From the IMG/VR virus record IMGVR_UViG_3300023174_000063: a DNA stretch of 64,000 nt, one strand, 5' to 3'. The stretch is from a virus. Below the pieces are notes generated by a model. The model saw only the letters and a program-made list of their open reading frames with translations, did not search any database and had not been told where the DNA came from. Of this stretch, positions 16,943 through 50,590 are shown in pieces (the stretch's first letter is position 1; each line of letters starts with the position of its first letter). Position numbers and translations under genes: made by a program.

Positions 16943-18490
16943 ATGTACTTACTTTTGACAGCAAGCAAAGATGCTTATATCACCGACAAGATTATTAAAT
17001 CGTCTTATCGCGTGACTGATGCAAATACAGGCAGAGCTGGAACAATCGATTTATTCAAATTGTACAATGAGACACTACTAGAAGGAGAAGCTGATCAAGT
17101 AGAGCTTTCAAGAGCTTTGATTAAGTTTGATCTAGATCCACTCAAGAGTCTCACGGGTTCAATTTTAAACATTGATAACTTTAAGTGCTTTTTATCTCTT
17201 TCGTCTGCCAATACAGGGCTTCATACACCAAATAATTTTCAACTTGATGTTTTCCCGCTTTCACAGAGCTGGGATGAAGGCATCGGTAGAGATACAAGTT
17301 CTTTTAGTGACATTGACGTTGTTAATTTTATTACAGCATCCTATCGAGACGGCGCTGTTTATGCCTGGAATGAACCAGGCGCCAATAAAAGAGGCCTACT
17401 GGGTTCAGACGATATTGACATCATTTCGAGTGGAACGTTAGATGAAGAAATAGAAGATCTATTTGTCAGTCAAGACTTTGTTAGTGGCAATGAAGATCTA
17501 TACGTCGATGTCACAAAAATAGTTTCTGCGACATTAAGTGGAATTTTACCTGATTGTGGATTTAGAATTTCTTTTAGCGAAGCTGAAGAAACTGATCAAA
17601 AGACAAGATTTGTCAAGCGATTTTATTCCAGGCATACAAACAGCGCCTTCAAGCAGCCATTCTTAAGAGTTCTTTTTGATGACTCAATTAAAGATGATCA
17701 TAACACATTTTATTTTAATACTACCGGTTCACTGTTTTTAACGAATACAATTCTTGGCAAAAGCCAGCAAATACTTTCTGGTAGCGACTTAAGCGTTTTA
17801 GAAGGCGACGACTGCTTGCTTTTAAAGCTTACAACAGGATCTCATTATGAGCTTGTTGTTTCTGCATCAAACTTTACAATGTCTGCAACAGGTGAGCCGA
17901 TTCAAGGACTTTACCGCGCTAGTTTTTGTATCCCATATGCAGACACAAGTCTAGTAATTAGTGGATCTCAAAACGCTACAATTTATGATATTGCTTCTTC
18001 GAGTGGGTCAATTGAATTTAAGACTGAATGGTGCTCGATTGACCAGACTGTTACTTTTGCTACTGGGTCAGTTAAAATTAAAAAACCCAATACGAATAGC
18101 TACAATTCGATTAGTCAAAATCCGAGCATAAAGATTGTGAATCTAAAGCCAAAGTTTAGTACGTCAGAGTCTGTTAGATTTAGGCTTTTTGGTAGAAATT
18201 TAGACAATAAGATTCATCCCCCCGTAAAAATTCCAATTTACGCAAAAAGTGAGTTTTTCGAGGATGTTTTCTATCGAGTTAGAAGCAAATTGACAGGTGA
18301 AATTTTAATACCCTTTGATGCGGAATTTAACAGCACAAGAATTTCACGAGACAGTGAGGGTTTATTTTTTGACTTTAAAATGTCCAACCTGTTTCCAGGC
18401 AGAGATTATTATTTTGAATTTTTAATTAAAGTTGATGGAAGAGAGCACATTGATTCACAAGACAGTCTTAGCTTTAGGGTTGATAAATAA
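16943..18490 (+). CDS. Virion structural protein (DNRLRE-like N-terminal domain)
   Basis: ASKDAYI..., SRALIKFDL, PLSQSWDEG, VDVTKIV and FYSR...PFLRV; baseplate context. Confidence 0.55.
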   Translation: MYLLLTASKDAYITDKIIKSSYRVTDANTGRAGTIDLFKLYNETLLEGEADQVELSRALIKFDLDPLKSLTGSILNIDNFKCFLSLSSANTGLHTPNNFQLDVFPLSQSWDEGIGRDTSSFSDIDVVNFITASYRDGAVYAWNEPGANKRGLLGSDDIDIISSGTLDEEIEDLFVSQDFVSGNEDLYVDVTKIVSATLSGILPDCGFRISFSEAEETDQKTRFVKRFYSRHTNSAFKQPFLRVLFDDSIKDDHNTFYFNTTGSLFLTNTILGKSQQILSGSDLSVLEGDDCLLLKLTTGSHYELVVSASNFTMSATGEPIQGLYRASFCIPYADTSLVISGSQNATIYDIASSSGSIEFKTEWCSIDQTVTFATGSVKIKKPNTNSYNSISQNPSIKIVNLKPKFSTSESVRFRLFGRNLDNKIHPPVKIPIYAKSEFFEDVFYRVRSKLTGEILIPFDAEFNSTRISRDSEGLFFDFKMSNLFPGRDYYFEFLIKVDGREHIDSQDSLSFRVDK

Positions 18491-21400
18491 TGTCTAGGCC
18501 AACTTCAATTTTCTCGAAGAGGACGAGACTATTTAGCCCCGCAGTTACAAGACATTTAAGGGAGCGAGATTCTGCTGTTGTCGGAGTTACTTCTGCAAAT
18601 TTGAGCGGATCATTCCTTGATCTCAGTTCTTCTTTTCGATATGACCCAATTGGTGCACCCCTCAGATCCACACAGCAGATACCTGTAGATTGGTCTGATT
18701 TTTCAAGACATACTTTCTTTAATTCTGCAGAAAGCAAAGTCAATATTGCTTTTGACAAAATGATTAATGGTTATCCTTTTGACGGTACTAAAGAAGAACA
18801 CATACAGTTTGTTGATGGCTTGACTGGATTTGAGAAATATGTTCTAGATCTTTTTCCTAAAAATGTAGGTTTTATAAACCTAGGCGGGGTTAGAGAAGAC
18901 GGAAGTCTTAGATCGACTTATTTGGAAGTCAAAGATATCGCTGGAAGTCATGAACCAGATATTTCTAGGAATAAGACAGGCAATTCTGTCTTAGATTCAA
19001 AAAACAATTCAATTACATTTGAATTTTTTGTCAATCCTGCTCCGGCAGCTGAGTACGAAGTTAGTGATCAAGTAATTACTACGCCCTGCGACAATAGAGC
19101 CTTAATTCAGCGTCTTTCAAGCGATAAAAGAAACGGCATCGGCATTTATCTTCTTAGCGGAACAAATGACTCGTCAAATGAAACGCTTCAAATGATTGTT
19201 TCTTCTGGAACAATTCACATTAGCGCATCCTTTAGCTTAGAAAAAGATAAATGGACACATGTTAGCTGTCAATTTAATAAAACGCCTGGCATTAATAAGC
19301 TGCATCTCTACAGAGACGGTGAACTAGTTGCAACATCTTCGACAGCAGAGATAGGCTATTTTGACTTCCAGGACCAAAATATTCTGATAGGCGCCGGGGA
19401 AACACATCTATTTTCAGGCAGCTTTGGACAGCCTTCAAATTTGTCATTAGACATCAATCAAATCTTTTCAGGTTCGATAGATGAATTGAGAATTTTTCAT
19501 GTGGCACGTAGTTCATCTACTATAAAAGATGAAATGTTTAAAAATATTTTTTCTAGGAATTCTTTGAAACTTTATTACAAATTCAATGAACCACATGGCG
19601 AGTACTCAGGCGCAAATTTAGTTTTAGATAGTTCAGGAAATTCAATTCACTCATCAATTATCAATTATGATGAAAATGTTCGCAATAAGTTTAATATTTC
19701 TTTGCCCCTTCTTAATGAAGAGCTAATTTACAATCCTATTCTTTTCCCCAGAAATGAAAATCTAATTAATCTTAACGTTGGACTTCTTGAAACCGCATCA
19801 GTTTATGACACTAACAATCCAAATTTAATAACAAAATTAATACCGCAACACTACCTCGAAGAAGCGTCAATCTTTGAAGGACTTAATGCAGAAACAAGAT
19901 TGGGCAATGCCGGCGACCCTTATGGTTACAACAAAAATATGCCAGGCGGCGGCAAATTTGGCTCGCCACAGATTGTTGCAACACTTTTGCTAATGTGGGC
20001 AAAATATTTTGATGAAATAAAAATGTATCTAGACCAATTTGGCAAGCTTTTAAATGTTGATGTAATTGAAGAAGGCAGCATTGCTGATAATTTTCTTCCA
20101 TTTGTTGCCGAATATTATGGCTTGACTCTTCCGAGAATAGTTGATAATGCTAGTATTGGTCAACTTATTGAAAATGAAAGCCTTACGTCAGATGTCAGAA
20201 ATTCAAAAAAGCCGATTAAGAAAATACAGTACATCATCTGGAGAAGAATCTTATCTGACATTAGAGAGCTTGTCAATTCAAAGGGAACGATGCACAGCAT
20301 TAAGTCTTTGATGAGAAATATTGGCATAAACCCTGACAATAATTTTAGATTTAAGGAATTTGGAGGCGCTAAGACAAGGCGTATTAGCGATTCTCGGCAG
20401 GTTAAAAGTGCTGTTTATGGAATGATTGACATGTCAAGCACTTATCTGTCGACAGGGGCAATGAATGCTCAGGGCGTCTTGGAGGACAGTCCATTTCTTA
20501 CATCTAGCTTTCTTTCAACATTTAGAAACGAAGAGAATGAACCCGGCTTTCCAAACATTGACGTTCTTGCAGATGATTTGCAAAATGGGCTTTTTACATC
20601 AGGCTCATGGTCATTTGAAGCAATTTATAAATTCCCAGAACCTCTTAAGAATGAACCGCTGCACAATATAACGCAAAGTCTTGTTAGGCTATGTGCTACA
20701 GGCTCGCAACCAGCGCACCTGATATTTGCTAATCTTATTGCATTTTCAGGGTCGAATGATCTTGGTTTGACTGGTTCTTTATCACTATTTTTACGACCAC
20801 AGCCCAATCTGTCTCCCCTGACAATTCCAATGACTGGCGTCGATATCTTTGATGGCAATAAATGGCATATTACTTTCGGTAGACAGAGAAATGATGAAAT
20901 TAATAACACTCTAGCATCTTCTTACTTTTTAAGGGCTGCAAGAACATCAGGCGGAAAAATCGTCGAATACTTTAGCACTTCTTCACTCTTTAATGACCAT
21001 GATCCATCACAAATCAATGTTTTTGAAAAAATTGATGCTGATTATAATAGTAGCGGTCTTTTTGTAGCAATAGGCCAACAAAGACTTGAAAGCTCAGATG
21101 ACTCGAGCTATGGGACGACAGCAGGGCTTGGATCGATTAATGATTCTGATGTAGGCAATGAACTAAATTGCAGCACAATTTTTGGGGGAAGAATCGCCAG
21201 AATTAGATTCTGGTCAAAAAGTCTTTCAGAACTCGAAACTCGCGAACATGCAATGAACGTGGGATCACTTGGCGTAAAAGATCCTAAGATTAACTTCAAT
21301 TTTAATGTAAATGATCCAGGAACATTTGAGAGACTTAGAATTGACACAAATGTTGATCAAGCGGTTACAGAGTCGAATACGCTCGGAAACATACAGATTT

Positions 21401-22056
21401 TTGATTACAGCCAAAATTTATTTCACTTAGAGGGAAGTGGATTTTTGCCAAACGGGAGAGTTATTAAACCTGAGAATTTTGAATATTCAATACTTTCTCC
21501 ACACTTTGAGTCTTCTAACTCGAATAACAAAGTTAGAGTTAGAAGCTTTGTTGACCCCAAAAATGTCCAAAATTTTAATGCGTCAATTGCGCCACTCTTT
21601 AGCATTCCAGCGAACGAAACACCCAAAGACGACACAAGATTCAGTATTGAAATATCACTTGTTCAAGCTCTAAATGAGGACATTATTAATATCTTTGCAA
21701 CGCTTGATACATTTGATGATATTATTGGCGATCCAACAGCACAATTTTCGGATGATTACAGAGACCTCACATTTATCGCGGATATTTACTTTAAGCGTCT
21801 CAACAAGAAGATCAATGTTTCAAGATATTTTGATTTCTTTAAGTGGTTTGATACAACTATTGGTGACACAATAGAAAATCTTTTGCCAAGAAAAACAAAA
21901 TTCTTAGGCAGTAATTACGTGATCGAGCCTCACATTCTCGAAAGAGCAAAATTTAGATATAACAACTTTGATATTTATATTGGTCCTAATGATAGATATG
22001 GCTTAAAAGGTCAAATACTTTTACAGCAATTTATTGCAGAGATTTTGAGGTATTAA
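18490..22056 (+). CDS. Baseplate/tail protein with LamG (concanavalin-A-like) domains
   Basis: ITFEFFV...WTHVSCQ...LYRDGEL...GSIDELRIFHVARS, a second LamG (WSFEAIY...WHITFG...GRIARIRFWSKSLS), and SKGTMHSIKSLM (gp7/gpI-like). Confidence 0.65.
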   Translation: MSRPTSIFSKRTRLFSPAVTRHLRERDSAVVGVTSANLSGSFLDLSSSFRYDPIGAPLRSTQQIPVDWSDFSRHTFFNSAESKVNIAFDKMINGYPFDGTKEEHIQFVDGLTGFEKYVLDLFPKNVGFINLGGVREDGSLRSTYLEVKDIAGSHEPDISRNKTGNSVLDSKNNSITFEFFVNPAPAAEYEVSDQVITTPCDNRALIQRLSSDKRNGIGIYLLSGTNDSSNETLQMIVSSGTIHISASFSLEKDKWTHVSCQFNKTPGINKLHLYRDGELVATSSTAEIGYFDFQDQNILIGAGETHLFSGSFGQPSNLSLDINQIFSGSIDELRIFHVARSSSTIKDEMFKNIFSRNSLKLYYKFNEPHGEYSGANLVLDSSGNSIHSSIINYDENVRNKFNISLPLLNEELIYNPILFPRNENLINLNVGLLETASVYDTNNPNLITKLIPQHYLEEASIFEGLNAETRLGNAGDPYGYNKNMPGGGKFGSPQIVATLLLMWAKYFDEIKMYLDQFGKLLNVDVIEEGSIADNFLPFVAEYYGLTLPRIVDNASIGQLIENESLTSDVRNSKKPIKKIQYIIWRRILSDIRELVNSKGTMHSIKSLMRNIGINPDNNFRFKEFGGAKTRRISDSRQVKSAVYGMIDMSSTYLSTGAMNAQGVLEDSPFLTSSFLSTFRNEENEPGFPNIDVLADDLQNGLFTSGSWSFEAIYKFPEPLKNEPLHNITQSLVRLCATGSQPAHLIFANLIAFSGSNDLGLTGSLSLFLRPQPNLSPLTIPMTGVDIFDGNKWHITFGRQRNDEINNTLASSYFLRAARTSGGKIVEYFSTSSLFNDHDPSQINVFEKIDADYNSSGLFVAIGQQRLESSDDSSYGTTAGLGSINDSDVGNELNCSTIFGGRIARIRFWSKSLSELETREHAMNVGSLGVKDPKINFNFNVNDPGTFERLRIDTNVDQAVTESNTLGNIQIFDYSQNLFHLEGSGFLPNGRVIKPENFEYSILSPHFESSNSNNKVRVRSFVDPKNVQNFNASIAPLFSIPANETPKDDTRFSIEISLVQALNEDIINIFATLDTFDDIIGDPTAQFSDDYRDLTFIADIYFKRLNKKINVSRYFDFFKWFDTTIGDTIENLLPRKTKFLGSNYVIEPHILERAKFRYNNFDIYIGPNDRYGLKGQILLQQFIAEILRY

Positions 22057-23055
22057 ATGCCGACATCACCGAGAGTCGAAGATGGTTCCTTGACAAAAGG
22101 CACAAGAGCAGTTGTCGTTTATCCCACAGAGTACTCAGGATCAAATGCGACTAGTCGCTATTTGCAAGGAGTTGAATGCAAAACTTTTGATTCACTTTTT
22201 AAATATGTCAGTATTAAGCCGAGATCAAATATTGACTTTCTCAAAATAAAAGGTGATAAAATTGTACTACCAGATCAAATATTCGATGACACTGATCAAG
22301 AGAATCTAAGAATTGATTTCAAGACAAAAACAGGTGCTAAATTAGCAATAAATCATGCATTTGATAAAAGAGATCTTGGTCAGCCAATTTTTAGATTTCA
22401 TGATGGAACACCTTTCTTAGACCACTTTATTGACAGTCCTGTCGAAATTATGCGTCTACTTGACAATGACATACTGCCCGACAGCTTTTCAGTTGACTCA
22501 GAAGGCTTTGAGGTCGATGATGCTTTCATAGAACCTCTCGGAGCGCGACCCTTCTCTAAAAAAGAAAAAGTTGAACGTCCTTTTAAGATGAATGGGACAA
22601 AGGGCGATCTTTCTGCCGTTGACAACACAGGCAAGTCTTGTTTTATCGAACAAGTCATAGAAAAAAACAACGTTAGAGTGATTAGTCTTGAAAATATTAG
22701 GGCAGGAATTCAGAGAAGAGAATTTTACCTTGCAGGTTTTGACTTCTACATTGATGGAATTGAATACTTCGCACAAGACTCAGAAATTACAGGTGAGAAT
22801 ATTTACATTGAAGGTTTCATAGAACCAAATAAATCAGAAATTTTACCATTTGTCGACGGTGACGATTCTGAAATATTCTTCCCTAACATCACAGATAATG
22901 AAACGCAAGACATGGAAAGTGCACTTTTTAATATGAATTCACCTCTAGGCGGCAATATATTTGATAGAAATCATATTTCCTGTACAGCTGGTTTTGTGTA
23001 TAATAACGTTGAATACGGATCTGATTCGGTGTCATTTGGAGGTCTTAAGAGATAA
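22057..23055 (+). CDS. Hypothetical virion protein
   Basis: 332-aa ORF coupled to both neighbours in the structural operon. Confidence 0.6.
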   Translation: MPTSPRVEDGSLTKGTRAVVVYPTEYSGSNATSRYLQGVECKTFDSLFKYVSIKPRSNIDFLKIKGDKIVLPDQIFDDTDQENLRIDFKTKTGAKLAINHAFDKRDLGQPIFRFHDGTPFLDHFIDSPVEIMRLLDNDILPDSFSVDSEGFEVDDAFIEPLGARPFSKKEKVERPFKMNGTKGDLSAVDNTGKSCFIEQVIEKNNVRVISLENIRAGIQRREFYLAGFDFYIDGIEYFAQDSEITGENIYIEGFIEPNKSEILPFVDGDDSEIFFPNITDNETQDMESALFNMNSPLGGNIFDRNHISCTAGFVYNNVEYGSDSVSFGGLKR

Positions 23056-26000
23056 TGTCTACCTACAAAAGAGGAAGAAGCGACAAGCTTGAGATAAATT
23101 TAACGTCATCATTTATAGCCGGCGGCACTCAATATACGCATCATGATGGAAGTCTTGTTGCGTCTTATAGATTTGAAGAGCCTTTTGTAGTTGACATTGA
23201 CAATCCTGACTCCTTAAAAGTCAAAGACGTTCGAGGCGATGTTGAACTCGAGGCTGTGATAACTTCTGGATCTTTTTCACCCGCAGAAGAGGTCGATGAG
23301 AGTATTGTCTTTCTACCCAGCCGAACAGCTGCTAGCACACCGCACGCTTTTAGCAGAAATTCAATGCCGGCATCTAATTACACAGATGAAGAAAAACTTA
23401 CAACCCCCAATGAAACGTCAGGCTTTCAGATTAGATCGCTTAACTTTGGTCAGGGAATGTCTGAAAGAGTAGAGCTTCCGGAAGCTATTTCGACTTCACT
23501 GAATGATATCGAGAGAGAATCTGTTTCACAAGAAAAAGATGCTTTTAGCTCTGGCGCATCTTTTGCATTTTGGATAAAAATTGACGGAAACGATGCGCTG
23601 TTTGAGACAGTATCTGAAGGGTATAATGTTAAAAACCCATACACAGCAAGATCTGTTTTCTCAGCAGATCGCGAGAATTATTTTGTTTCTGACGGGCCCT
23701 TGCTTGGAGATGAAATAGATTTTGGAAGAGCCTTTTCAATTAGAGTCATTAATGACCCAACGTCTAGCAAGCACAGAAAAGTCTCAGTTATATCAACTTA
23801 CACTTTGCTTGGAGAAAAAAGTCAATTTGAGTGGCTGTCGAAAGATTCACTAAGCGAAAATGTTTGGACGCACATTTGCGTCGTGTTTCCCTTCACAAAA
23901 AAAGCAGATGTAATAATCATTGACCCTGATGTTCAGGATTATAATATTGCGCCTAGAGTATATTTTGATGGTAGGAATGTCGGCGTTAATTTACAATTTA
24001 CAGATGTTAAAAATACGATCGATCTTAGAGTCATTGATGCGAGTCTTGACAGTCCGGACTTCATCAATGTCTATATTGATACGCCCTACAAGAGTGGCAT
24101 AAAAACAAGTCTTCTAAGACTTGCGAAAGATGACACCGAGATTTTTCCAAGTGCATCAATAAAAGTCGATACAGACTTTTTAACAGACATTAATCACATG
24201 TCGACTTTTACGATAAAAAATGATCGAGGTGAACCTGCAAATTTCTTATTTGACTTTTTTCATACGGGTTCTATTGCTAGATATCTCAATGAGAACGTGG
24301 AGTTAGAGTCTCCTCAGATGGTCAATGCTCAGAGTTTAAATTTAGCTACTATTGAAATAGCATATGATCCTGATTCTTCTTCTTTTGATAGCGCTATTAA
24401 TCCTGCTAATTTGTCTTATTGTAGAATTACTACTCCAAATAATCTTACAAGAACATATATGTTCGACAACAGCCTAACAGGTTCAGAAGCAATAGAAACA
24501 ATCACACCAACTAGCTGGCCCCTTACAGGAATTAGGGTCGCAACAGCTAAATCATTGCCGAGCAACACATACTTAAATGGCGTCGACGGCGTTGGCGCAA
24601 CAATTACTGCCACTGATGATAGTGCACTCAGCGTCGATGACATTCTAGTCTCAAGCGGCAATTTGATTCTCGTTAAAGATGAGCCCGACGGCTATAAGAA
24701 CGGCATATATGGAGTCACAAGCGCCGGGTCAGCTGGATCTACGTGGTCTTTGATACGACACCCAGATGCCAATAGTTCTGGATCTTTCGAAAGAGGAAAA
24801 TTGACTCCATCAATATCAGCAGGGTCTGTCAATCAAGGCAAGAAATTCATTCACATGACCCAGTTGAATGTTGTTCTAGGAACAACGCCCTTACAATTTG
24901 TCGAAGCATACACAGGTGCAACAAGCTATGCTTATACTACTATTAAGCCTGTTGTTAGTGGAGGTTTAAATCCCTGGGCACAGGATGTCTCTTTCTGCAT
25001 TTACCACAAAGAACATGACAACAGCTACGTTCGTTTTCAAAATGCTCCATTTGCTGCTTCCCCTGTGCAAGGACCTGATGGTCAATGGACTTATTACATT
25101 GACACAACAGGTGTCGCTAGTCTCGGTCAATATGCCAATGCCATTCTGGCTACACTTTTTAATGCTGCTATTGACGATGAGATCTTAGATTTAACAGTTG
25201 CAGGTCTTAACGCTTCAAATTCTTCTCCCGGAGCTCAAATTGTAGCTGGGCTTGTCGCAGCTGGAACTTACACAATACCCCTGAGACTAAATTATTCAGG
25301 CGCGCCAGCGCGCCCGCATCCTGCTAATATTCCTGACACAAGATCAATGACGATCAGTGATGAATCGGTTGTAGAGAGGACAGTAATTACTGCACCTGCG
25401 ATCGGTGTTGATCATGTCGTCGATTTTGATTTTAGTGGTGTGCCTACAAATGGAACTTCTTTTAGTTTTATAAATTATAATTCTCGTATAGAAACAATCA
25501 CTTTCGTTGCAGGCTCAGCAGGCCCTAACGAAATTAGCATTGATACGCTAGACGCTGCTGGAGCAATTCTAGCGCTTGAAGAAGCAATTAATAATTTTAC
25601 AATGTCGGGTTTTTCTGCAACTAGTGCCGCTAATCTTTTGACCGTGACATGTAGCGCATCATTCCTGACAGCACGCCCGGGAGACATTTTTTTTGAGGAT
25701 GGAGCAGACTTTTTTGATGTTGCCTTTAATGGCAGTTTTGGAATGGGAAATAAGTCAAATAACATAAGCGCAGTTTTTAATACGGGAAGCTTATCGTTTG
25801 GTTTCGATCATAGTCAAAATGTTTTTTTTGAAAGTCTTTTGACGCCGGCCACTTTTTACAACTATAGTGGTTTTCCATTTTATGATAAGCTTAGAAACAC
25901 AATAAACACTGTCTGTAATTACAAGGGAGATCTCTCAGGAACGCCTTCTCCAGTCGAATTAGTTCGTTCAGGTTATCCTGTCTTTATTTTTGGAGATGGA

Positions 26001-29000
26001 TCTTCTCAAACAGACACGGCAGGTGCATTTAATAGTACAAGTGTTGTCGAAGGAAAAGATTTTGCTTCCAATAGATATATTAGAACAACACAGAAACTCA
26101 AAGGCGATGCAGTCGTTAGATTTAGCTGCATACCCGCGAAATCTCAAAGTGACTTTTCTGACAAAATTTCAAAAAAATTAATTAATCCTCCTGAAGGCGA
26201 TGACAAAGGACTTTGTGTACAAGTTTCTTATGACGGGGTTACATGGTTTGGCGCAAAGAGACTAGTTAGTGAAATCAGATATGACAATAATATTTCTTAC
26301 GCACGTGTCAATGATGCTGATCAAAGCAAGCTTAATCTTGTAAAGTGTACAACTAGCACAACAGATGCAAATCGCGAAAAAATAATTTATGACGATTTCA
26401 CTGGCATTGATGACAGTGACTTCGTGTGGCAGACGCACGCCTTTTATTGTGATTCTCGCAAGATAGTCGATGATGAAACATATTTTGACTATTACGTTAG
26501 AATAATACAAGAGGGATATGATAGTTCTTATTCTGACAACTGGGCTATTGCAAATATTACAATTGAAGGAACTTTTTCTCACGACATTAGACGAGAGACT
26601 CCAGATACGATAACACTTGTTAAGATTGGTGATACAGCCGAAGACACATGGGACAATTTTGTAACTGGAGTCAATGAAGCACATTTAGGCGAAATTACTG
26701 CTATTCGTTCTAGTCAAGAAAAAACTATCAAACTACAGTTTAATAGCCCAATTGGCATAATTGACGAAGGCGTATCGGGAGGCCAGATTCTTTCATCTAG
26801 TTACAGGACTAGACAAAAAAGCTTAGACAACAATGCTGGATTCGCTGCAGCTTTTGCGAAACAAGAAAGAGTCAAGCTTATAAATTTTGACGGGGGTGGA
26901 ACAAGCAAAGCGCACAATGATCATATTAGAATCGGCCTAAAAGATATAAGTGATCTATCGAGCGCAGTTTATAAAATTAGCACAGTTATTAATAGCTCGA
27001 GCATGACTTACGCTCTAAATAAATCATTAACGTCGACATCTAAGAATACATACGTAGACATCTTTAGTGAACCTTCAGTATCTGCTACTACAAAGAGTCA
27101 TTTATCAAATATACTGACAGTTTCTGGAGAAATAGCGGCTAATATCACAGCCAGTGATTTTACAGACTTTAGATTTGCAAAATCAATTGATATTAGCTCA
27201 ATACCTGCAGGTCCTGATTACAACAGCCTCGTTGCAGCTAACATTAGAGATACTATTAATGAATATTCATCTTCTTTTGGAGTCAAAGCATGGGGCATTG
27301 GAACAGCAACAGACTTAACTGAATTTGTCACTCTCGAGCATTTGGAAAATAACGCAGATGCTGATAACTGTGAAGTCAATGTCTTCTTTGCAGATAATGG
27401 AAATGACATTGTTGAGACAACAGATCAGATTTTGACAAATCCGATAGAAGAAGACTTAGACGAGCCTGGGCCGAATCTTTTCAGCGGGGGTATGTACAGT
27501 AAGTCAGAGCCTCAGGGCGATGTGCTTGATTTTGGAAAATGCTTTTTAGGGACATCGCCAAATGATCTCGAATATTACATGGCGAGCAGCTATCCGATTA
27601 GAGGTTATCAAAACAACGTTTTGCCCACAGACCCATCAACAGATTCAGAATTTGCTTCTAAGCTGGCCGGCCGGACGCCTAAGTGTCTTATTGATGATTT
27701 TTCTATCTGGTCTAGGTGTCTTTTATCGACAGAGGTTGCCGCTATTGTCGCTGCATCAAGGGGTGCCTACGAACCGATCACTGGCTTGTCAAGTCATGAC
27801 CCAAGAATTCAAATAAGAGAACAGGATAATTTTTCTGGTATTTACCCAACAAATTCTAGAATAACAGACGAAGATTTTACCGGAAGATTTTCAGTTTTTT
27901 ACGACTCAAAATTTGAAATAAATGACGAGACAGGGTCAAGCGAAGTCGAATACCCTTACAGAATTAGTAACGACCACCCGCTGATTAGTTATTTAACAAC
28001 ATCGGGGCATGCTAGATCTACGCTGGATGTTGAATCGCCCATGAAGCAATTCAATAAGATTAATTTAGAGACTCTAGGTGAAATCATTACACCTTACAGA
28101 GAAGAAGGACAATTTGCAGCATTTGGCGTTGCAATACACGATGATGCTGATACTAATTTTACAAATAGCGAGAAATTTGGAATTCGTGGTGGATTTTGGT
28201 CCAGCGGTTCTAGCACACAGTCAACAGGAGACGGTAGAACAGGTCCAGTTTGGGCAAAACATAAAATTGAAATTGATCTAAAGCCTACACAGTCAACAAA
28301 ACTTTACAAGCACACAACTTTGGGGTCAACAACAGCTTATTTTAACTTTGAATCTAACGTCTGGGAACCAATTGGAACAATTTCATCTGGTTCTTATTTG
28401 ACAGATTCTAGTGCCCATGAAGACTCATACGCAAAAGTTCGAATTCTCTTCTCAAATATAGAAATTACAGGCAGCATTCCAAATGGAGGCGCCGCAACTA
28501 CATGGTATAGCTCCATGGCAGTTGATCGTCGTGAAATATTTCACTTGCAAGATGCTTATGGAAAAAGAGTTAAATTTTGCTTAATAACAGATGAGGAATT
28601 AGAAATCGAGAGCACCTCTTTTAGAAGATACGGCAGTGGTCTCTATGGAATTCTAGTAGATTCTTTTGGCTTTACTGCGCCCGATTTTTGTCAAAGAATT
28701 TATTTGGCATTGAATGCAGCATTTCTTATAGGCGACCTGAATATTAAGCCTGTCTATACAGCCAGTAATAGATACGTTGATCTAATACAGGCAGACTTTG
28801 GCTCCGAGGGAAACACTGAAATTTACTTTAATAGCGATTTTGTTCCAAACAATGCTGGTGCGCCCTCCAAAACAGTTAGTGACTTTGTCTCATTTTTTAT
28901 TCCAGAGACAGAAAATTTTAATTCGGGCACTCACACTCTTGTATTTGTAGGAGGTGATAGAGAACAGATAGACACAGCATCAACGCATGGAAAGCAAAGT

Positions 29001-32000
29001 CTTTATACCCTCGATGCTTCTGGAGATTCACAAGACAATAACTTTAGAAAATGGATGGATACGCTGACCGTTGGTTTCGGCCCTTCTATTGGAATGCTAG
29101 CTGTCAAGAGTGATGCTAGCGATTTAACAATCCTAAAAGGTGATCACACGCTAGCTGGAAAATATGTTTTTAGAGATAGTGGTCTTGCAACACCTGTCAC
29201 AACATTTGGCTTTCCGTTTCATCCTAAATTTCATGCAACCAGTTCTCAGACGTTTAATGTCACTGATGTCATTGACAGGCCCTTTGTTGTTGAGAAAATA
29301 GTTTATCAGTTTAGAGCAGATCTTTTTGAGTCTGCTTCTATACAGTGCGCGAGTTATGGTTCAACAAGTAGTTTTACAGATCCCGCATTCATCAACATGC
29401 CGACACCCACTTTCTTCATTTTGAATCAACGCAAGTGTGTGCTGCCGAATGCCATTGAAAATGACATTAACTTGCTCTCACTATTTGATGCAAATGCAGA
29501 AGCAAATACAAGCTTTAATTACTCTGCAACAATTCCAAGTAGTTTCTATTTAACAAGCATGTCAAGCGATAGTGGAAACGTTACACATGTCGACACGCTT
29601 CGTGATCTGGTGACTTTCGCAAGATTTTCTAGCGTTCCTGGAGCTTTTAATAGCAGTGACTTTGAAAATTTTGTCCCAGACGCAAGAGAGAATATTGATC
29701 TTGTGATAGTCCCGTCAGACTCTGCAGAGGCTAATGATGATAAGCAGCTTTTGCAAAGTAACGAGCCTGCTGCATCATTTACAATTGCAGCTCCTGTTAG
29801 AGCACCAAGAAGAAACACGTCAGCTGCTGCCTTCAAGACAGAAGGTGACTTTTTTGGTAGTGATAAGAGCGTGTACACGTTTGAAGTGAATGAAATTGAA
29901 TCTCCAATTAAGCCATATTCTGATGGAATAATTTTAGAAGATTCTGCCGGAACAATTCGTAGGTTTATTTTTTCAAATGGTAGTGCAGCAAAATTTGAGA
30001 TGCCTGGAGCTGCTCCGGGTCTTGTAAACAAAGCTGACCTCCTGGCCGGCCCTGAGTGTTTTGTGCTTATAGATAGTGCTGGCAAAGTCGTCACTTTTAC
30101 ATTTAAAAATGATTTGATCTGCAATGAACCTGTCAAAAATGATGCAACTGAATATTTTGTCGGTATTAAAGATCTTCCTCTTAGTAGCAGTGACCCATCA
30201 TACATACAAAAACTTTACGAGACTATCGCTGCGTCTGTTAACCTGGCTTATCTCAATGAAGACCTAGACATTTTTGCTGTGGTTGATGCAGTTGTAGATA
30301 TTTTAACATCTGTAACAACATATTTTATTACCTTTTACCAGGGCACAGTAGGCAATGATGGCAATACTGAAATTCAATGGCTGGCAGACACATATAATTT
30401 CACGGGTGGTAGTTCGCCCACTGAATCGAGCATTGTCTATAAATCCTTCGGAAATTCCTTCGACTTAGGATATGAGTCTGTCTGGATTATACCTGTATTT
30501 AAAAACGCATCGTCACCTGGTGGTGCTGAATACTACGCATCAAGATTCTATGACGCACTATCGATTGCAAATGAAACTCTTCCTGAGCGCGGCGGATTTG
30601 CATGTCCTTTCGAGCTTCAATTGACAGGATCGTCGCCCACGTCTAACTTTACATTTAGCCAGTGTATTGGTGGCCGGCGAGGATACAAGAATATCGCAGG
30701 AACCCAAGGCGTCGAATCATTTAAGGATTTGTATTTTGCAAGTTTATTTACAACTTGGTACACTGACTATGCCTCAATCGAGTGTACAACAGGTAGCATC
30801 CAGGCTGACACACTTAAACTAGGATGGGCAGGTAATAGAACGGGCATTGACGTACTGCTTTCAGGACGATCACCCTTCGGAGGAGAAAACTCTTCAGCAG
30901 ATTTTGTTTATACACTCAAGGACGGTACACAGACATGTACAATAAATCATGTCGACAGCGACAGTATTGAATCTCCTTACTTGCTGATGCCTGGCGATAA
31001 ATTAGTTTTTGGCTGGCAATCACCTATTGCTACAGGCTCACATTTGCAGCACTTGCCTCTAGAGGCAGTGACACCTGATTCTGGTAGCTTTGAAATCTTG
31101 CCTGGCGCCGGAAAAATTACTATTTACGGCGCCGTTCTCCAGGGTGGCGACGAGAAAAATAGAGTTACAAGCAACCAGCCGTTGACGAGCGAAGCACTTC
31201 ATGAATCAATTTTTGGAGATGCAGATGTTTTTGATATTTTCGACACAGACCCATATGTTTTTCATGCAGACAACTATCTAGATCAGCATGTCGATGGAGA
31301 AATCAGTCTGAGCTCAAATCCTCCTGTCTATACAAGAAGAGTAATTAGCAAAGCAACAGACGGAAATCATGCGGTCGGACCAAAAAATGGAACCTATCCT
31401 ATTTTCTCGAAGCGCGCGAGCTTCTTTAGAGGGCGTCGTCTTGTAGACGAATCTGAAGTCTTTTATGATTCAATGTTGCCCAATGTGAGCGAGTTGATGT
31501 CAAGAGACAGTGTTGTCCCGCTAAGCCCTGCCAGCGGATCAGAATTTGACAGCGTTGCTAGAACGGGTGTCGTAATTTTGTCACATCCTTATCTTGAGAG
31601 TTCAGAAGACGATAATGATCTTAGCAATTCTGCGTGGAAATTGTGGATGTCTTCTTTTCCTTTCGAATCTAGGTATGAAGGAATTACAAGAACACAGGGC
31701 TTTGATACAGGAATAATTGGCAATGCATCTTTTGGCAGCATTGACGCCGGAAGGCAGAGAATTACGCATGTTTGGCTAGCTAACTCGTCTAAATTCCTAA
31801 AAGGCTATCATGATGATGACGCAGATCAGTCATATTATGCGAACATGCTTTACAATATCGAAGCTCCAAGACTCTACACACAGTCGACGTCTCTGACAAT
31901 TGGCGGCAAAGCACAGCCTTATAATTTAAATTTTTCAATTATCACAAATGAAGAAGGCGAGGGGTCTCCTGGAGAAGAATTAACAAATATTGACTTTGAT

Positions 32001-35500: not shown

Positions 35501-35678
35501 ACCTGGCGCAAATTTTTCATATGCAAATTTTGAAAACAAGAGAATTGATATCTTTGTTAATGGTCAGTTGCTTGTTTCAGGTTCAAGCAAAGATTATGTA
35601 TTGGATGGCTCTGATGATGGCATCATTGTGTCCTTTGATTTATATGCAAATGACACGATTGTAGCTATTATTCAATAA
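32556..35678 (+). CDS. Tail-fibre-like repeat protein
   Basis: Six L[ST]GSLTxLxxG...AGxNxxI...GQIxIS repeats, YTAGEGLKL fibre-shaft repeats and a duplicated C-terminal beta domain. Confidence 0.7.
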   Translation: MSQNNKKLTLTELKKSEQIVVRSGSNNFIDKLIFPNPVTIGLGGDLKSLLTTEGGIKINPAVPIDVTNTLYSSNGELFFNGSPLVNGGKNSNFLFDSNSKTLRLTGSLDAGSTGNIISKALTGSLTTLLDGSQFIKSGAGISVSTGTNGQITISALVQDTGIRASIVATTVGNVANSLHEKEINFTDADGRNVTFTYDKNVDVGSPARNSAISYTIGCKSVANDTTHAAGLENALNLASDNNDLGLNVARSDNVLTITQQKGGETGNTEVNGTAIETSLVLLSNANFFSGGSALLSSVNANYLTTSPSGDLNNERVLATGVGLTSVDAGPNSSFTLSIDTNVVPRKGVDNVFAGTQTFSGEIKAKHHKLPNGSDAFVAGKNIVITKNENGSLTFSSVDSDTKYTAGEGLKLLGNQFAVKTGNGLSIVGGQLAINLSSMIGSFLSIDASGKLKVNVTSGRGLSGDENSLFVNTSDFAGEGLVSSDGDLQVDQSKIAFLAGSTFTGDVKFNAGLSGSLTNLASGESYLIAGDNVTIVTQSSGQIAISSSYVDTTYLPGPGLELSGTLFSVALKEYGGLTFDDTEVILDKQAVIGNGLKEGTEKIIDVDESVVAFLDGATFTGNVDFAGGLRGSLTKLVDGTDFIVAGDNVQVVELESGAIEISASSTGITSPAGNSDEIQINFEGNFAAFEDFRYDSAEKALCVTNINCTSLTGSLTRLQDGTAFISAGTNITITTGTSGQIVISGAPTTLVAARSRFVQIVDTLQPANTPFEIDGADFSLPTFSKNLIDINLNGSLLYSGTAEQCSSGTADYSIYDSNKLIFSFELVPDDVIQATMLTSGSDTLTLLPGGITGPQNSIQFNDSGNFGGDSDFVYNSSSKTLTVPNLSGSLTNLSTGESFITTSGSIISIVTESNGSLTLSDSFATVPVIVYESESAVGSAKFLNVESPLVLTSTENSIDLAVQREKVVFEIVSSHPSNESISIPGANFSYANFENKRIDIFVNGQLLVSGSSKDYVLDGSDDGIIVSFDLYANDTIVAIIQ

Positions 35679-36968: not shown

Positions 36969-36969
36969 A

Positions 36970-39951: not shown

Positions 39952-39966
39952 TTTGGAGCACGAAAG

Positions 39967-43887: not shown

Positions 43888-43902
43888 GCAGCTAGAGGGT
43901 AC

Positions 43903-45834: not shown

Positions 45835-46539
45835 ATGGGCTTTTTAGATCATTCGACAAACAACATTATTGTTGATGCAGTATTAACAGATAGAGGGCGA
45901 GAGCTTCTAGCCGCTCAAAACAGCAGCAGTGTTAGGTTTAATATCACGAAATTCTCACTTTCAGATGATGAAGTTGATTATACTATCATTAAAAAGTATG
46001 GTAGAACTGTTGGCAAAGAAAAAATAATAAAAAATACACCTATTTTTGAAGCACAGACAAAAGCCTATCTTGCACAAAAATATCGTCTAATTTCTCTTAG
46101 TGACGCGGTTCTAACAACACTTCCTACAATCACGGTCTCACCTGCTGCATTGACATTTAACAGACAGATTGTAGCACAACAAAGACAGACTGTTAGAGTT
46201 GACACCTTGATGTCAAACGCTGTTATACCTGCAGAACTTGCAGATGAAAATTATTTTGTTACAATACCGAGCAAACTTTTGTCAATTACGCCGAGCAAGA
46301 AAGAAATTGATATCGATGAATCAACTTCCTTGCTTAATGCTACGTACTTGGTAGAAGGTAATATCAAATCTGGCAATGCTACGGAGGCACAGTTTACACT
46401 GCAGGTAAATTCAACAATTGACGATACACTACTTTCTGTTTATGGTGATGGAAGCGGAAATATCAGTGCACTTATTTCAATTGTCGGTGCAAATTCAGGA
46501 TCACGTCAAGATTTGACTTTTACTATCACCAGTCTATAA
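45835..46539 (+). CDS. Virion/tail structural protein
   Basis: DAVLTDRGRELLA...ITKFSLSDDEVDY resembles the start of tail-collar fibre domains. Confidence 0.55.
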   Translation: MGFLDHSTNNIIVDAVLTDRGRELLAAQNSSSVRFNITKFSLSDDEVDYTIIKKYGRTVGKEKIIKNTPIFEAQTKAYLAQKYRLISLSDAVLTTLPTITVSPAALTFNRQIVAQQRQTVRVDTLMSNAVIPAELADENYFVTIPSKLLSITPSKKEIDIDESTSLLNATYLVEGNIKSGNATEAQFTLQVNSTIDDTLLSVYGDGSGNISALISIVGANSGSRQDLTFTITSL

Positions 46540-46565
46540 AATATAAGATTTAACAGGAGATAATA

Positions 46566-47831
46566 ATGACCCCGGGAAGTTTTAAAATACTTGGTTCATC
46601 TGATAAAAAGTCAACAAGGTCTGCACTTAATCAGCTAGTCGATGTCGTTCAAGAGGATATTTCAGGTTCATTTACGCGCAGGACGTACCAAGTGTTTGTT
46701 ACAGGCGGCGTTGGTCCCGGTGTCACTTCTTCGTTATTCCAGACTGTATACGACCAAGATTACACGCTGCAAACTGCAAATCCTGTTTTTGATATGACAG
46801 TAGGTCTATACTCTGGAAGTGATGTGGTCATGACTGTCAACGGCGGAGATCCTCCAGCAATTGACACTGCTGGAAAAATGCTTTTTCCATCTACGTCACT
46901 TATGATGCGTGAAAAAATTGATATCTATAAGCAGTTTGCAAAAAACTGCCTGGGCGATTCTAACGCGACATTTACATCTCCTTTTGGCGGAGCTGAGGCT
47001 GCCGATCGCATCGATGAGGCACTTTTTATTTCTTTCAAGCGACTTTTTGCCAGAGATCATATCAAGAAAGAAACAGTTGCGCTTAGATTTGCAAGAGAAG
47101 CAGTCGATACAATGAATGACGATCCGGATCCGGGCGTTCACACGTCAAACCTAGATGTGACAAGTGAAGATACTCCCAAGATCTATACAGATATTGGCGC
47201 ATCAACTTCAACAAGAAGAACTTTTGGCGGAGATGTTGCAAACATAGTAGATGCATCAGATACTACGTCAAAAGTGGGTTTGATCTTTTACGAGCAGGGA
47301 ACAATAGTACTAGATCTCAAGAAGATCATTAACGGCAATCAGCATTGCTCGGGTGTCATTGATGCAATGAACGCTGGCTCTCCTGATTCTGGTGCAGGTC
47401 TTCCAGTTGGGACAATGGTGATGGGAAGAGACGATGTTGATCTCGCAAATCCTGATGCTACATTTATACCAGACCTACTTGTTTCAGCATCTATTGATGA
47501 CATTGTTGACCATATTGCCTCGTGCAGGTTCAGTTCAGGTTCACTGACAGCGATGACATTTCAGAATTCTACGTTAATTCAGTCATCAATTTATTTCTGT
47601 CGGGCATCGGCAGATGAGTTTAACTATTCGACTAATCCTACGTACGTAACAGACGGCAGGATTAATGTTATTGATACAGGTGAAGAAGCTACTCAAAGAT
47701 CTTTTACATTCCCAACTACAATTGGTCTGCACAATGATGACGGTGAATTGCTAGCTGTCGCAAAGCTTTCACGTCCAATTGAAAAGAATGATGAGAGAGA
47801 CGTTACGTTTAGAGTAAGACTAGACTTCTAA
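46566..47831 (+). CDS. Virion/tail structural protein
   Basis: C-terminal FNYSTNPTY...TTIGLHNDDGELLAVAKLSRPIEK...FRVRLDF; GGAG SD. Confidence 0.6.
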   Translation: MTPGSFKILGSSDKKSTRSALNQLVDVVQEDISGSFTRRTYQVFVTGGVGPGVTSSLFQTVYDQDYTLQTANPVFDMTVGLYSGSDVVMTVNGGDPPAIDTAGKMLFPSTSLMMREKIDIYKQFAKNCLGDSNATFTSPFGGAEAADRIDEALFISFKRLFARDHIKKETVALRFAREAVDTMNDDPDPGVHTSNLDVTSEDTPKIYTDIGASTSTRRTFGGDVANIVDASDTTSKVGLIFYEQGTIVLDLKKIINGNQHCSGVIDAMNAGSPDSGAGLPVGTMVMGRDDVDLANPDATFIPDLLVSASIDDIVDHIASCRFSSGSLTAMTFQNSTLIQSSIYFCRASADEFNYSTNPTYVTDGRINVIDTGEEATQRSFTFPTTIGLHNDDGELLAVAKLSRPIEKNDERDVTFRVRLDF

Positions 47832-47845
47832 AAAACGGAGAGTCT

Positions 47846-50590
47846 ATGTCGATTAATCCGCTATCTCAAGAAAATTTTGAAAACTATACTATTAAAACTC
47901 ACACACATAGAGTTTTTAGTTCGTCTTCAACTGGACAGACAGGAGATTTGCGTGTTTTTTCTCGTGCTAGTGACATAGAGAAAGATACTGTCCCGGCAGG
48001 AGACAACATGCAATCTCCTGCTGTCAACGAAGAGACAATTGAGAAAAAATTGCACGATATAGTCGCAAACATTGCCGATTCAACTGATATTTTTTCTCAA
48101 ATTGAAAGCTATATGATCGCTGTTAATGGAACAGAAGTTTCAAAAACAAGGCAAAAAAGTGTCGGAATCTTAAGGTTTGAACCCAGTGTCAGGTTTACAA
48201 AAGATACAGGCCGTAAAAATACGGTAAGACAATGTCTATTTCCTTTTTATTCCGGAAAATACAGAAGCTGCGAATGGTCATATCCAAATTATCATACAAT
48301 TAACTTCTTTACAAGCTCTGACGTGCCAACGTCATCAGTTTTAATTTACCCGGCTGCATCAGGAACTGCGAGACCTGTTGCAATTACAGAAGGCAATCCC
48401 GAAGGATTTCCTTACTCACCTCATGATTCTTTTTCTTTTGAATTCTGGATTAATCCTAGATATACAGCAGATAATGCTGAGAGTGCATACACTGCTGGGA
48501 CTATTCTGCATCTGTCGTCTAGCTATGCAATTTCTTTAGTAACAGGCTCAAGTAGAGACGAAGATGAAATCCCTACGGGATTTAGAATAATGCTCCAACT
48601 AAGTGAGAGTGCTAATATTCCTCCTTCAAGCGTAGATCTAAACTCTCCACCTGAACTAGTTTTTGTTTCGTCTGACAATAGTCTGACTTATAACAATTGG
48701 CATCACGTTGCTATTAGATGGGGAGGTCTCCAGGTCAATGCCGGCACAGGCTCATTTGTTATTGATGGAAAAATAAACGAAGAGTTCTGTTTGCCTTATG
48801 CGTCTGTGATGCCGATGTCTTTTGACCCACCAATATCGGATCCGGATGGCTTGTTTGTTGGCAATTTTTTTGAGCAAATTACACCAGCGGCAGTAGTTTC
48901 AAGATTTTTTAATGTAAATGCTGCTTATAACGATGGAATTATTAGCTTTTTTCCTATTTTTGCTGAAACAAGGTCGATAGAAGTTTCTGATAGCAGTATT
49001 GTTAAGTTGACTGTGGTCAACGAAGCAGGCCCGGGAATTAATCTTGTAGTTGATTTGGATTTTAAGCATGTACCAGGAAATCCTGCAGCAGGAATTCCTA
49101 CTGCAGGAACTGTTTTTAGTTTTACTGATTACGCTTCGAACACAGTAACAATTACATTTGTTGAAGGCGTGGCAGAAGACAACCAAATCAGTATTGATTC
49201 ACTAGCGAGCACTGAAGATGCTATTGAGGCCCTCAAAAATGCAATTAATACTTTGATTGATGAGTTTTTTTCTGCATCAAGTTCTGGAAAAATTTTGACA
49301 GTGACAGGTTTGTCATATGCTTTTAGTGACGACGACGCAGCGTTCTCAGACCCGCCGACAGACTCATATTATCTTAGGCATCCTTTAAATGCAGAAATAC
49401 ATGAGATAAAAATTTACAACACGTACAGAAGTGTTGATAGCATTATTAGCGGATCAAAAACTAGTGTAACCGAAATAACTGATGACTTGCTTTTTTATCT
49501 GCCGCCCTTTTTTACCAAAACAACTGCAAAGCGCAATGTGTTGCAAACGCCATTTCAGTCTGCAAGAACGTCGACAAACGATCCTTTCAATGTTGCGCTT
49601 TCTTTTGGAATTGGCGGGCGAGAAATAAATCTTCCAAATTTTCTTAAAGAATTTGTGCAGGAAACACACCCGCGTCTACTTTATCTGACCGCTTCAGAAA
49701 TAGCATACGGTGTCAATGAAGGCAAGACTGCAAATGATTTGCTCTACGAGTCTCCAAACTTAAGAAAAGCAAATTTGACTATTTTACCAAACGACAATGG
49801 CCTTTTTTACCCCAACTATACGCTTCTTTCATTAGATCCAGAAAATTCTGATCGTTTTGTCAATCGATTTGGCGAAATTGAATATTCAAAAATAAGACTA
49901 GATGACATGGTTAGTTTAGAAAGTATTGCCAAAGGCACACCTTCCGATGACGATGCCGGCGGCTTTCTTCTAGGTGAAATTGCTACTCCAGAAGACCCAG
50001 GTTTGGCTCCCGGAAATATTTTGACTATTCTCAATAGAACCAGGGACACGTCTTCTAATGAAGTTGTATTTTTTGATGCGTCAAATCTCTATTATGGAAA
50101 TCAAATTAAAGTTAACTCTTTAACAATTTGTGATCCCTCTCTGACAGGCTCTGGTGGAAAAGTTTCAATTTGCTTAAAAGACAACGGCATTGGTGGCCTT
50201 TATAGGGCAGACTGCCTAACGAAGCAAGCAAACTGGAATGAAGTTGGAGCAATTCTCTATGAAGAAGGATTGCTCACCATTAAGTCACCTAATCTTCCCA
50301 TGTTCGGAAAAGACAGATGGGATATAGAATTCGATGGCGAACACAATGTCTATGTAATGGAAGTGAATATTCCCTGCGCAAAAGGACAGTTTAATTCATC
50401 ATCAAATCCTAACTGGCAAGCTTTGTACGCTAGCGACGATGCAAATCTCGTAGAAGATAAATTCTGCTACATAACAGGACTGAATCTACATGATGAAAAC
50501 TTTAATGTCATCGCGCGCATGAATCTGGCGCAGCCAGTTGTTAAAAAAGAGTCTGATAAATATTTGTTCAGAGTCAAGATAGACTTTTAA
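47846..50590 (+). CDS. Tail structural protein with LamG domain, C-terminally paralogous to 46566
   Basis: FSFEFWINP...WHHVAIRW...EIHEIKIYN; C-terminal FNSSSNPNW...ITGLNLHDENFNVIARMNLAQPVVK...FRVKIDF. Confidence 0.6.
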   Translation: MSINPLSQENFENYTIKTHTHRVFSSSSTGQTGDLRVFSRASDIEKDTVPAGDNMQSPAVNEETIEKKLHDIVANIADSTDIFSQIESYMIAVNGTEVSKTRQKSVGILRFEPSVRFTKDTGRKNTVRQCLFPFYSGKYRSCEWSYPNYHTINFFTSSDVPTSSVLIYPAASGTARPVAITEGNPEGFPYSPHDSFSFEFWINPRYTADNAESAYTAGTILHLSSSYAISLVTGSSRDEDEIPTGFRIMLQLSESANIPPSSVDLNSPPELVFVSSDNSLTYNNWHHVAIRWGGLQVNAGTGSFVIDGKINEEFCLPYASVMPMSFDPPISDPDGLFVGNFFEQITPAAVVSRFFNVNAAYNDGIISFFPIFAETRSIEVSDSSIVKLTVVNEAGPGINLVVDLDFKHVPGNPAAGIPTAGTVFSFTDYASNTVTITFVEGVAEDNQISIDSLASTEDAIEALKNAINTLIDEFFSASSSGKILTVTGLSYAFSDDDAAFSDPPTDSYYLRHPLNAEIHEIKIYNTYRSVDSIISGSKTSVTEITDDLLFYLPPFFTKTTAKRNVLQTPFQSARTSTNDPFNVALSFGIGGREINLPNFLKEFVQETHPRLLYLTASEIAYGVNEGKTANDLLYESPNLRKANLTILPNDNGLFYPNYTLLSLDPENSDRFVNRFGEIEYSKIRLDDMVSLESIAKGTPSDDDAGGFLLGEIATPEDPGLAPGNILTILNRTRDTSSNEVVFFDASNLYYGNQIKVNSLTICDPSLTGSGGKVSICLKDNGIGGLYRADCLTKQANWNEVGAILYEEGLLTIKSPNLPMFGKDRWDIEFDGEHNVYVMEVNIPCAKGQFNSSSNPNWQALYASDDANLVEDKFCYITGLNLHDENFNVIARMNLAQPVVKKESDKYLFRVKIDF

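Follow-up and report, generated by a model that had tools for sequence, protein, structure and literature searches.

Why should one short tripeptide occur at four to seven times its chance frequency in a set of phage tail proteins? The question is raised by IMG/VR virus record IMGVR_UViG_3300023174_000063, of which a stretch of 64,000 nucleotides (hereafter the window) was analysed. An initial annotation, made from the letters alone, had counted about 43 occurrences of Ser-Gly-Ser or Thr-Gly-Ser ([ST]GS) in structural proteins encoded between positions 16943 and 50590, and had taken them for an acceptor motif of the phage's own glycosyltransferases (GTs) or of another modifying enzyme. The observation is confirmed here and extended to a whole clade of phages, and the interpretation is partly supported: we give a probability of about 45% to the reading that [ST]GS tags the tail exterior for O-glycosylation by phage-encoded enzymes.

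All long open reading frames (ORFs) of the window lie on the + strand, and its genes were identified with PHROGs and Pfam. Positions 16943-50590 hold a block of large proteins without family assignment, among which six tail or baseplate proteins together contain 44 [ST]GS, compared with 11.3-11.5 expected from per-protein shuffles (observed/expected ratio, O/E, 3.8-3.9; z 10). These are a peripheral baseplate protein of 515 amino acids (aa), encoded directly after the gp6-like gene (16943..18490; 7 sites vs 0.72 expected), a 1188-aa Laminin_G_3 (ConA-like) protein (18490..22056; 7 vs 1.26; PF13385, E 8e-14 at aa 165-345), a giant tail/baseplate protein of 3151 aa (23055..32510; 14 vs 4.72, p 0.0005), a 1040-aa fibre-like protein (32556..35678; 9 vs 3.07), a 421-aa structural protein with homologues in phages immuto, Mel-JY01 and RM378 (46566..47831; 3 vs 0.55) and a second Laminin_G_3 protein, of 914 aa (47846..50590; 4 vs 0.99; PF13385, E 6.5e-6). 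The counts of the annotation are thus reproduced exactly or within one (the giant protein has 14 sites, not about 13), and so is its remark that sites are few in the non-structural genes of the window, where enzymes and head genes have 3 against 5.4 expected. Its assignment of the enrichment to the structural block as such holds for the six proteins only, since six other genes in the interval (22057, 36018, 36970, 39967, 43903 and 45835) together have 4 sites vs 2.4 and are not enriched. At its upstream edge the enriched block adjoins the gp25-like and gp6-like inner baseplate wedge proteins (14592..16927, with starts at 14592 and 15080; phrog_43 and phrog_6), which have no [ST]GS at all (0.14 and 0.52 expected); the boundary recurs in the 80 relatives described below. 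Within 36018-45780 lie four tail-block proteins (316, 993, 1306 and 625 aa) with neither a family match nor [ST]GS enrichment; a structure-atlas look-up of the 993-aa and 1306-aa proteins gave weak FN3-like leads for the former and otherwise nothing.

Two facts would suit a statistical artefact, whether of composition, of low complexity or of selective choice of the motif: it was picked after the sequence had been viewed, and the Ser, Thr and Gly content of the proteins is high. Composition-preserving shuffles, which the annotation had suggested as a check, leave the enrichment intact, and block shuffles that also keep local composition (blocks of 10, 20, 40 and 100 residues) give an expectation of 11.2-12.4 +/- 3.3 and never exceed 26 in 2000 shuffles, so that z stays at ~9.5-10 under global and block shuffles alike. 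When all 8000 tripeptides are ranked by over-representation in the six proteins, TGS and SGS take the first and second places (p ~1e-7 each). The signal belongs to the complete tripeptide, with O/E of 0.91 for [^ST]GS and 1.06 for [ST]G[^S], and to one direction of it, TGS being found 20 times, against 4-9 times for any of the five other arrangements of these residues (SGT 9). Local compositional heterogeneity is rejected by the block shuffles and permutation controls, and an explanation by a recurrent DNA word by the codons, since the 44 sites are spelled by 32 different 9-base strings drawing on both Ser codon families; selection therefore acts on the protein. The pattern is also repeated in 80 relatives and three cultured phages (see below), and these controls refute an artefact, whose probability we regard as negligible. 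The variants TAS, SAS and SGT, described as common in the annotation, do not reach significance in the window ([ST]AS 15 vs 9.6, p 0.06; [ST]GT 11 vs 8.1); SAS and TAS are over-used in phage immuto.

The large terminase of the window shares ~40% identity with its counterparts in Flavobacterium phage immuto and in Microcystis phage Mel-JY01, and ~32% with the terminases of T4-like cyanophages. The window phage is therefore an uncultured aquatic T4-like phage, one of a large clade of aquatic 'far-T4' myoviruses. Three loci found through the 515-aa protein (L001-L003) show the same synteny and enrichment as the window. A gp6 profile retrieved 80 further IMG/VR relatives (31-70% identity), in which [ST]GS occurs 1131 times downstream of gp6 vs 223 expected, and 44 times upstream of it vs 68; at the 51 loci where the downstream part comprises 1000 residues or more, the O/E is never below 2.9. 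Three cultured phages that carry an adjacent pair of family 4 glycosyltransferase genes (GT4, discussed below) are enriched genome-wide, namely immuto (O/E 2.55; SGS and TGS ranking 1 and 3 of 8000), Mel-JY01 (2.82; ranks 3 and 9) and the Rhodothermus phage RM378 (2.65; ranks 5 and 14), and the block downstream of gp6 in Mel-JY01 reaches 7.4 on its own. PHROGs gave no identification for most of the enriched RM378 ORFs. Four phages that lack the first gene of the pair (GT4a) are negative: T4 (O/E 0.66; ranks 4847 and 6948), cyanophage S-IOM18 (1.43; 208 and 249), Ma-LMM01, which has the same host genus as Mel-JY01 (0.92; 3707 and 4504), and Flavobacterium phage 11b (1.36; 967 and 2025). Given these negatives, the enrichment is neither imposed by the host nor general to myovirus fibres: a generic property of fibres and baseplates is rejected by the corresponding proteins of T4, which have 7 sites vs 8.4, and a host-driven explanation by the host-matched Ma-LMM01 and 11b. 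Genome-wide, T4 under-represents the tripeptide (17 vs 25.9 expected), and the neutral baseline may therefore lie below 1.

How the sites evolve can be followed in the 515-aa protein, which has more than 1200 metagenomic homologues of nearly constant length. Among 44 homologues at 45-69% identity, the positions of five of the seven sites are conserved, as are the hydrophobic neighbours of these sites, and each homologue has 3-8 sites vs ~0.9 expected. Both motif hydroxyls are under purifying selection: in this family and in that of the 1040-aa fibre, positions 0 and +2 of the motif are Ser or Thr in 84-89% of homologue cells, compared with 56-60% for other Ser/Thr, and are rarely replaced by Asp or Asn. 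Two subgroups of the 515-aa family, ~24% identity apart, have only one site in common (position 374); six others are found in one subgroup alone and four in the other alone. Site density is nevertheless 4.7 and 5.2 per protein (again ~0.9 expected). Such turnover of positions at constant density suggests that selection acts on having the motif, and not only on keeping ancestral positions. Density is likewise high in the family of the 421-aa protein (more than 5700 homologues; mean 4.1 sites vs 0.73 expected), in the homologues of the 1188-aa protein in relatives (10-11 vs 1.6-2.4 expected) and in a partial homologue of the giant protein in L001 (13 vs 2.7 expected). The 805 non-redundant sites in the relatives extend the motif somewhat, hydrophobic residues being favoured at -2, -1 and +3 (44-47% vs 32%), with a deficit of charged residues at -1 and +3 and no Pro at +3; no signal lies beyond +/-3, which indicates a compact linear motif. 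In the six window proteins, the pentapeptide with a hydrophobic residue on each side of [ST]GS has an O/E of 10.9.

Capsid and sheath were looked at in the relatives, and it is chiefly immuto that tells which virion proteins carry the motif. Its proteins downstream of gp6 have 61 [ST]GS vs 13.3, and its tail sheath has 7 vs 1.28, all within residues 62-275, which align to the outer domains of T4 gp18; the inner C-terminal domain of this sheath has none. In Mel-JY01, too, the sheath shows enrichment (4 vs 0.92). No enrichment is seen in the tube, hub, tape measure, portal and head-completion proteins of immuto. The tag thus marks the tail exterior, i.e. the outer domains of the sheath, peripheral baseplate proteins and fibres, and not the whole virion surface; the annotation's idea of an address code for the virion exterior is borne out for outward-facing tail proteins and fails for the head, the immuto major capsid protein having 1 site vs 0.59. 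Two hypothetical proteins in the morphogenesis region of immuto are enriched as well. A hypothetical protein of 373 aa (record 135075-136196) is the densest in the genome with 12 [ST]GS vs 1.26, and its 139-aa neighbour has 4 vs 0.43; neither belongs to a PHROG family. A tblastn search with the motif-dense spike of immuto found matches in immuto strains only.

The sites do not stem from one repeat. When flanks are compared with the 44 sites as anchors, a single family emerges, made of five of the nine sites of the 1040-aa fibre, where they lie in a repeated unit of ~40 residues within the protein (L-[ST]-G-S-L-T-x-L-x-D-G ... N-I-x-I-x-T-x-S-N-G-x-I-x-I-S, a consensus of six homologues and the flank clustering); the remaining 39 are singletons without flank similarity. 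The annotation had spoken of unrelated folds and no single repeat family, which is accurate for most sites and overstated for the folds, since Laminin_G_3 is common to the 1188-aa and 914-aa proteins and weakly also to the giant one; a single domain family nevertheless does not explain the signal. The 1040-aa protein, for which neither Pfam nor PHROGs has a family, contains a second repeated element, N-G-x-L-L-x-S-G-S-S-x-x-D-Y. An AlphaFold2 model of the 515-aa protein (pLDDT, the predicted local distance difference test score, 82; predicted template modelling score, pTM, 0.76) predicts a chain of beta-sandwich modules resembling carbohydrate-binding (CBM) and FN3/macroglobulin-like domains. 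Of its sites, at aa 71, 261, 279, 298, 340, 354 and 374, the model places 261 and 354 at strand starts, 298-300 in a hairpin turn of two to three residues, 279 and 340 after short strands, 374 inside a strand and 71 in coil, so that the predicted contexts are heterogeneous, with no single structural setting. The annotation had pictured surface-loop acceptors; many sites, with their hydrophobic neighbours and their predicted positions at strand starts, in a hairpin turn or inside a strand, would not be free surface loops. The model of the 421-aa protein was left unused (pLDDT 61, site regions below 50).

What, then, might read the motif? The candidates in the window are GT4a (9037..10281; Glycos_transf_1, E 1e-15) and a second family 4 glycosyltransferase, GT4b (10278..11468; Glycos_transf_1, E 5.5e-9), whose genes overlap by 4 bases. 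Only nine of 50,697 phage records have GT4a homologues, those of the immuto strains, Mel-JY01, LR756508 (a 484-kb uncultured phage), RM378 and, weakly, Tetrasphaera phage TJE1, and homologues of GT4a and GT4b are adjacent in immuto, Mel-JY01 and RM378. The signature E-G-[FWY]-G-x4-E (E-x7-E) is kept in both enzymes of the window phage, L001-L003, immuto and Mel-JY01; in the RM378 copy of GT4b it was not found. The pair follows a nuclease gene throughout: a PD-(D/E)XK-type exonuclease gene in the window (8070..8948, phrog_1218 exonuclease; triad 8070-11468), a homologous nuclease gene in immuto (48008-51927) and Mel-JY01 (81375-86302), a PDDEXK_1 gene in L001-L003 and a Pol I-like exonuclease gene in RM378 (8212-11893). 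This exonuclease-GT4-GT4 triad is common to phages that otherwise share few genes, and adjoins baseplate genes only in genomes of the window type.

GT4 pair and enrichment occur together in the window, L001-L003, immuto, Mel-JY01 and RM378, and the two phages with a single GT4 homologue, LR756508 and TJE1, show weak enrichment or none (none in TJE1). Measured by terminase identity to the window phage, RM378 (30.5%) and the GT4-negative S-IOM18 (32.2%) are about equally distant. By BLAST, 16 immuto ORFs have homologues in both Mel-JY01 and RM378, and eight of these are absent from all four negative phages; seven of the eight map to regions for tail, baseplate or other morphogenesis genes, and GT4a is the one enzyme among them (the comparison covers ORFs of at least 120 aa and homologues within reach of BLAST, and is not exhaustive). 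Genes accompanying the pair include GT2, FkbM-methyltransferase and sugar-nucleotide genes. The window has a GT2-like/methyltransferase gene (4609-6006; weak GT2 matches and a methyltransferase domain in Pfam) and a GT2 gene (6076-8001; Pfam); in the place of these two genes L001 has a GT2 and an FkbM-type methyltransferase. Mel-JY01 encodes, at 3065-8430, an annotated structural protein with 13 [ST]GS (2.5 expected) and then a 1226-aa FkbM-methyltransferase/glycosyltransferase fusion; in RM378 a UDP-galactopyranose mutase-like gene (record 112985-114136) lies ~2 kb from homologues of the window genes at 45835 and 46566.

That an enzyme reads the motif, that the GT4 pair is its reader and that a sugar is what they attach are inferences. 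In such a scheme phi-phi-[ST]-G-S-phi, where phi is hydrophobic and uncharged, would be a short linear recognition motif kept dense by selection on outward-facing tail proteins, and its most likely reader would be the conserved cytoplasmic GT4 pair of the clade, with GT4a as the candidate reader or priming enzyme. The pair would O-glycosylate one of the two motif hydroxyls at strand-turn-strand positions of beta-rich tail proteins during assembly, and the products of the neighbouring GT2 and methyltransferase genes (4609-8001) would extend and cap the glycan. The complete form of this proposal, in which [ST]-G-S is a true linear O-glycosylation sequon read by the GT4 pair in the host cytoplasm, GT2 and methyltransferase extend the glycan, and a globally abundant freshwater/marine clade thereby gives its tail exterior a sugar coat of its own, is put forward tentatively, at somewhat less than even odds.

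Several results weigh against glycosylation by the GT4 pair. Outside the window-type genomes the pair is linked to the nuclease and not to tail genes (at 48-52 kb in immuto, at 81-86 kb in Mel-JY01 and next to ribonucleotide reductase in RM378), and the major capsid protein of immuto, as noted, is not enriched. LR756508 has gp6-like, terminase and GT4a homologues of the clade and only weak enrichment near its baseplate genes (12 vs 7.3, O/E 1.65), and is a possible discordant case. A phmmer search of PDB with GT4a matched only enzymes of the TreT, MshA-like and BshA types, which use small-molecule acceptors, and the same search with GT4b gave no match at E<=0.01. A literature search found no experimental evidence of virion glycans for these phages, and nothing on Mel-JY01. 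Moreover, the search for a clade member demonstrably without GT4 found none (GT4a is present in three of 15 distant contigs, all 15 being only 8-37% complete), so the association of GT4 with the motif is inseparable from common descent; all positives may form one clade, and the presence of GT4 and the motif may both simply be clade traits. For the initial proposal of an acceptor for phage GTs this means that, in every genome where both could be tested, the enrichment does co-occur with phage GTs, and that the case for glycosylation is circumstantial.

If not a glycosylation site, the motif could be a structural idiom specific to the clade, a strand-start or tight-turn element of shuffled beta-sandwich and fibre modules that serves folding or trimer assembly with no covalent modification. 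The enriched proteins are indeed beta-rich, with LamG, CBM and FN3-like folds, and the hydrophobic preference at -2, -1 and +3 and the exclusion of Pro at +3 fit such an element equally well, as do the conserved hydrophobic flanks of the conserved sites in the 515-aa family and the longer module in which the motif sits in the fibre repeat. The strand starts at 261 and 354, the hairpin turn at 298-300 and the strand interior at 374, where the model places sites, could be read in the same way. Tail modules are exchanged between genes, and such exchange could mimic positional turnover. Yet equally beta-rich baseplate and fibre proteins of T4 are not enriched, and likewise S-IOM18, Ma-LMM01 and 11b; the local contexts are heterogeneous and do not form one turn type, there is no sequence signal beyond +/-3, Asp and Asn, the usual interchangers of Ser and Thr in capping turns, rarely replace the motif hydroxyls, and sites are gained at different positions in homologues while density is held. 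We consider this explanation less likely than glycosylation, and the most serious of the rivals. More doubtful is a tag for some other trans-acting factor, such as phosphorylation, acylation or a clade-specific assembly chaperone, with the GT4 pair acting on DNA, a small molecule or the host envelope. Being short, directional, subject to turnover and confined to the tail exterior are properties of a tag that do not identify its reader. In immuto, Mel-JY01 and RM378 the pair is syntenic with a nuclease rather than tail genes, and the nearest solved GT4 relatives have small-molecule acceptors; both would suit this alternative. On the other side, in the BLAST comparison above no other enzyme gene fits the pattern of positive and negative phages. 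Hydroxymethyl-pyrimidine DNA is also an unlikely common acceptor, as a search for PF00303 (ThyA fold) found no member in Mel-JY01 or RM378 and one typical thymidylate-synthase-like gene in immuto (td and gp42 in the T4 control).

Glycosylation of the tail exterior by the GT4 pair may be compared with several known systems. GtfA/GtfB, the O-GlcNAc transferase of serine-rich repeat adhesins, is encoded by two adjacent GT4-family genes and has Ser-small-Ser acceptors, GtfB being non-catalytic. The phages resemble it in their adjacent GT4 pair and in the over-use of SAS and TAS in immuto, but both phage GT4s keep E-x7-E, and the phage sites stand singly in folded domains instead of forming long Ser-rich repeats. 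Pfam reports no DUF1975-type domain for the phage GT4s. As both paralogues keep the catalytic signature and phmmer found no match to GtfA/GtfB PDB chains, this analogy was rejected. A short three-residue motif marking many unrelated surface proteins is also found in the general O-glycosylation of Bacteroidota (D-[ST]-[AILVMT]), which is a periplasmic system, and in cytoplasmic N-glycosyltransferase (N-x-[ST]); neither of these motifs is meaningfully enriched in the six proteins, where D-[ST]-[AILVMT] occurs 39 times vs 35.9 expected (O/E 1.09, z 0.5) and N-x-[ST] has an O/E of 1.19. In the mycobacteriophages studied by Freeman et al. 2023 the targets are reportedly capsid and tail-tube subunits, with no defined tripeptide sequon, and we know of no tripeptide sequon for mycobacteriophage virion glycosylation in general; here, in contrast, capsid and tube are not enriched (as seen in immuto), and the hosts are Gram-negative or cyanobacterial. 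That phage-encoded GTs glycosylate mycobacteriophage virions has been proposed or shown in work cited in PMC12801897 and PMC11256854, and the latter reads a pair of GT genes in a phage genome as a sign of a glycosylated structural protein.

The closest mechanistic precedent, by analogy, would be the autotransporter heptosyltransferases Aah and TibC, soluble cytoplasmic enzymes that O-glycosylate many Ser and Thr residues on the beta-rich proteins AIDA-I, TibA and Ag43, at sites that have no linear consensus (PMC3835316, citing Charbonneau et al. 2012). Here too the acceptors would be on beta-rich surface proteins, and the placement of phi-[ST]-G-S-phi at strand boundaries, as predicted for part of the modelled sites, would resemble that of Aah/TibC acceptors, where the Ser or Thr begins a loop joining two beta-strands; unlike those, the phage sites show a sharp tripeptide, and the targets would be virion tail proteins. 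Nor do the candidate phage enzymes belong to the autotransporter heptosyltransferase family; Pfam matches them only to Glycos_transf_1/GT4 and Glycos_transf_2.

Should [ST]GS prove to be glycosylated, tailed phages would have their first defined sequon for virion glycosylation, and glycobiology a new cytoplasmic O-glycosylation sequon with sites predictable from sequence. A very large environmental phage group would then cover the structures with which it recognises hosts in glycans of its own making, at positions that can be predicted, with a bearing on adsorption, on protection from proteases, grazers or defence systems, and on the reading of tail-fibre structures. Two cultured phages, immuto and Mel-JY01, make the idea directly testable. 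If the motif is structural instead, it would still give structure predictors and annotators a sequence rule of unusual sharpness for the beta-rich tail proteins of one lineage.

Further genes of the window recognised with PHROGs or Pfam are those for a RuvC-like resolvase, a primase, an SbcC-like nuclease, the large terminase and the portal. At 393-4397 the + strand encodes a collagen-like tail fibre (19% Gly, with PHROG tail fibre and collagen-like minor tail matches), in an ORF that is open to base 3. Its [ST]GS content is not elevated (4 vs 7.5 expected), and it may be a separate glycosylation target; its gene directly precedes the GT2-like/methyltransferase and GT2 genes at 4609-8001.

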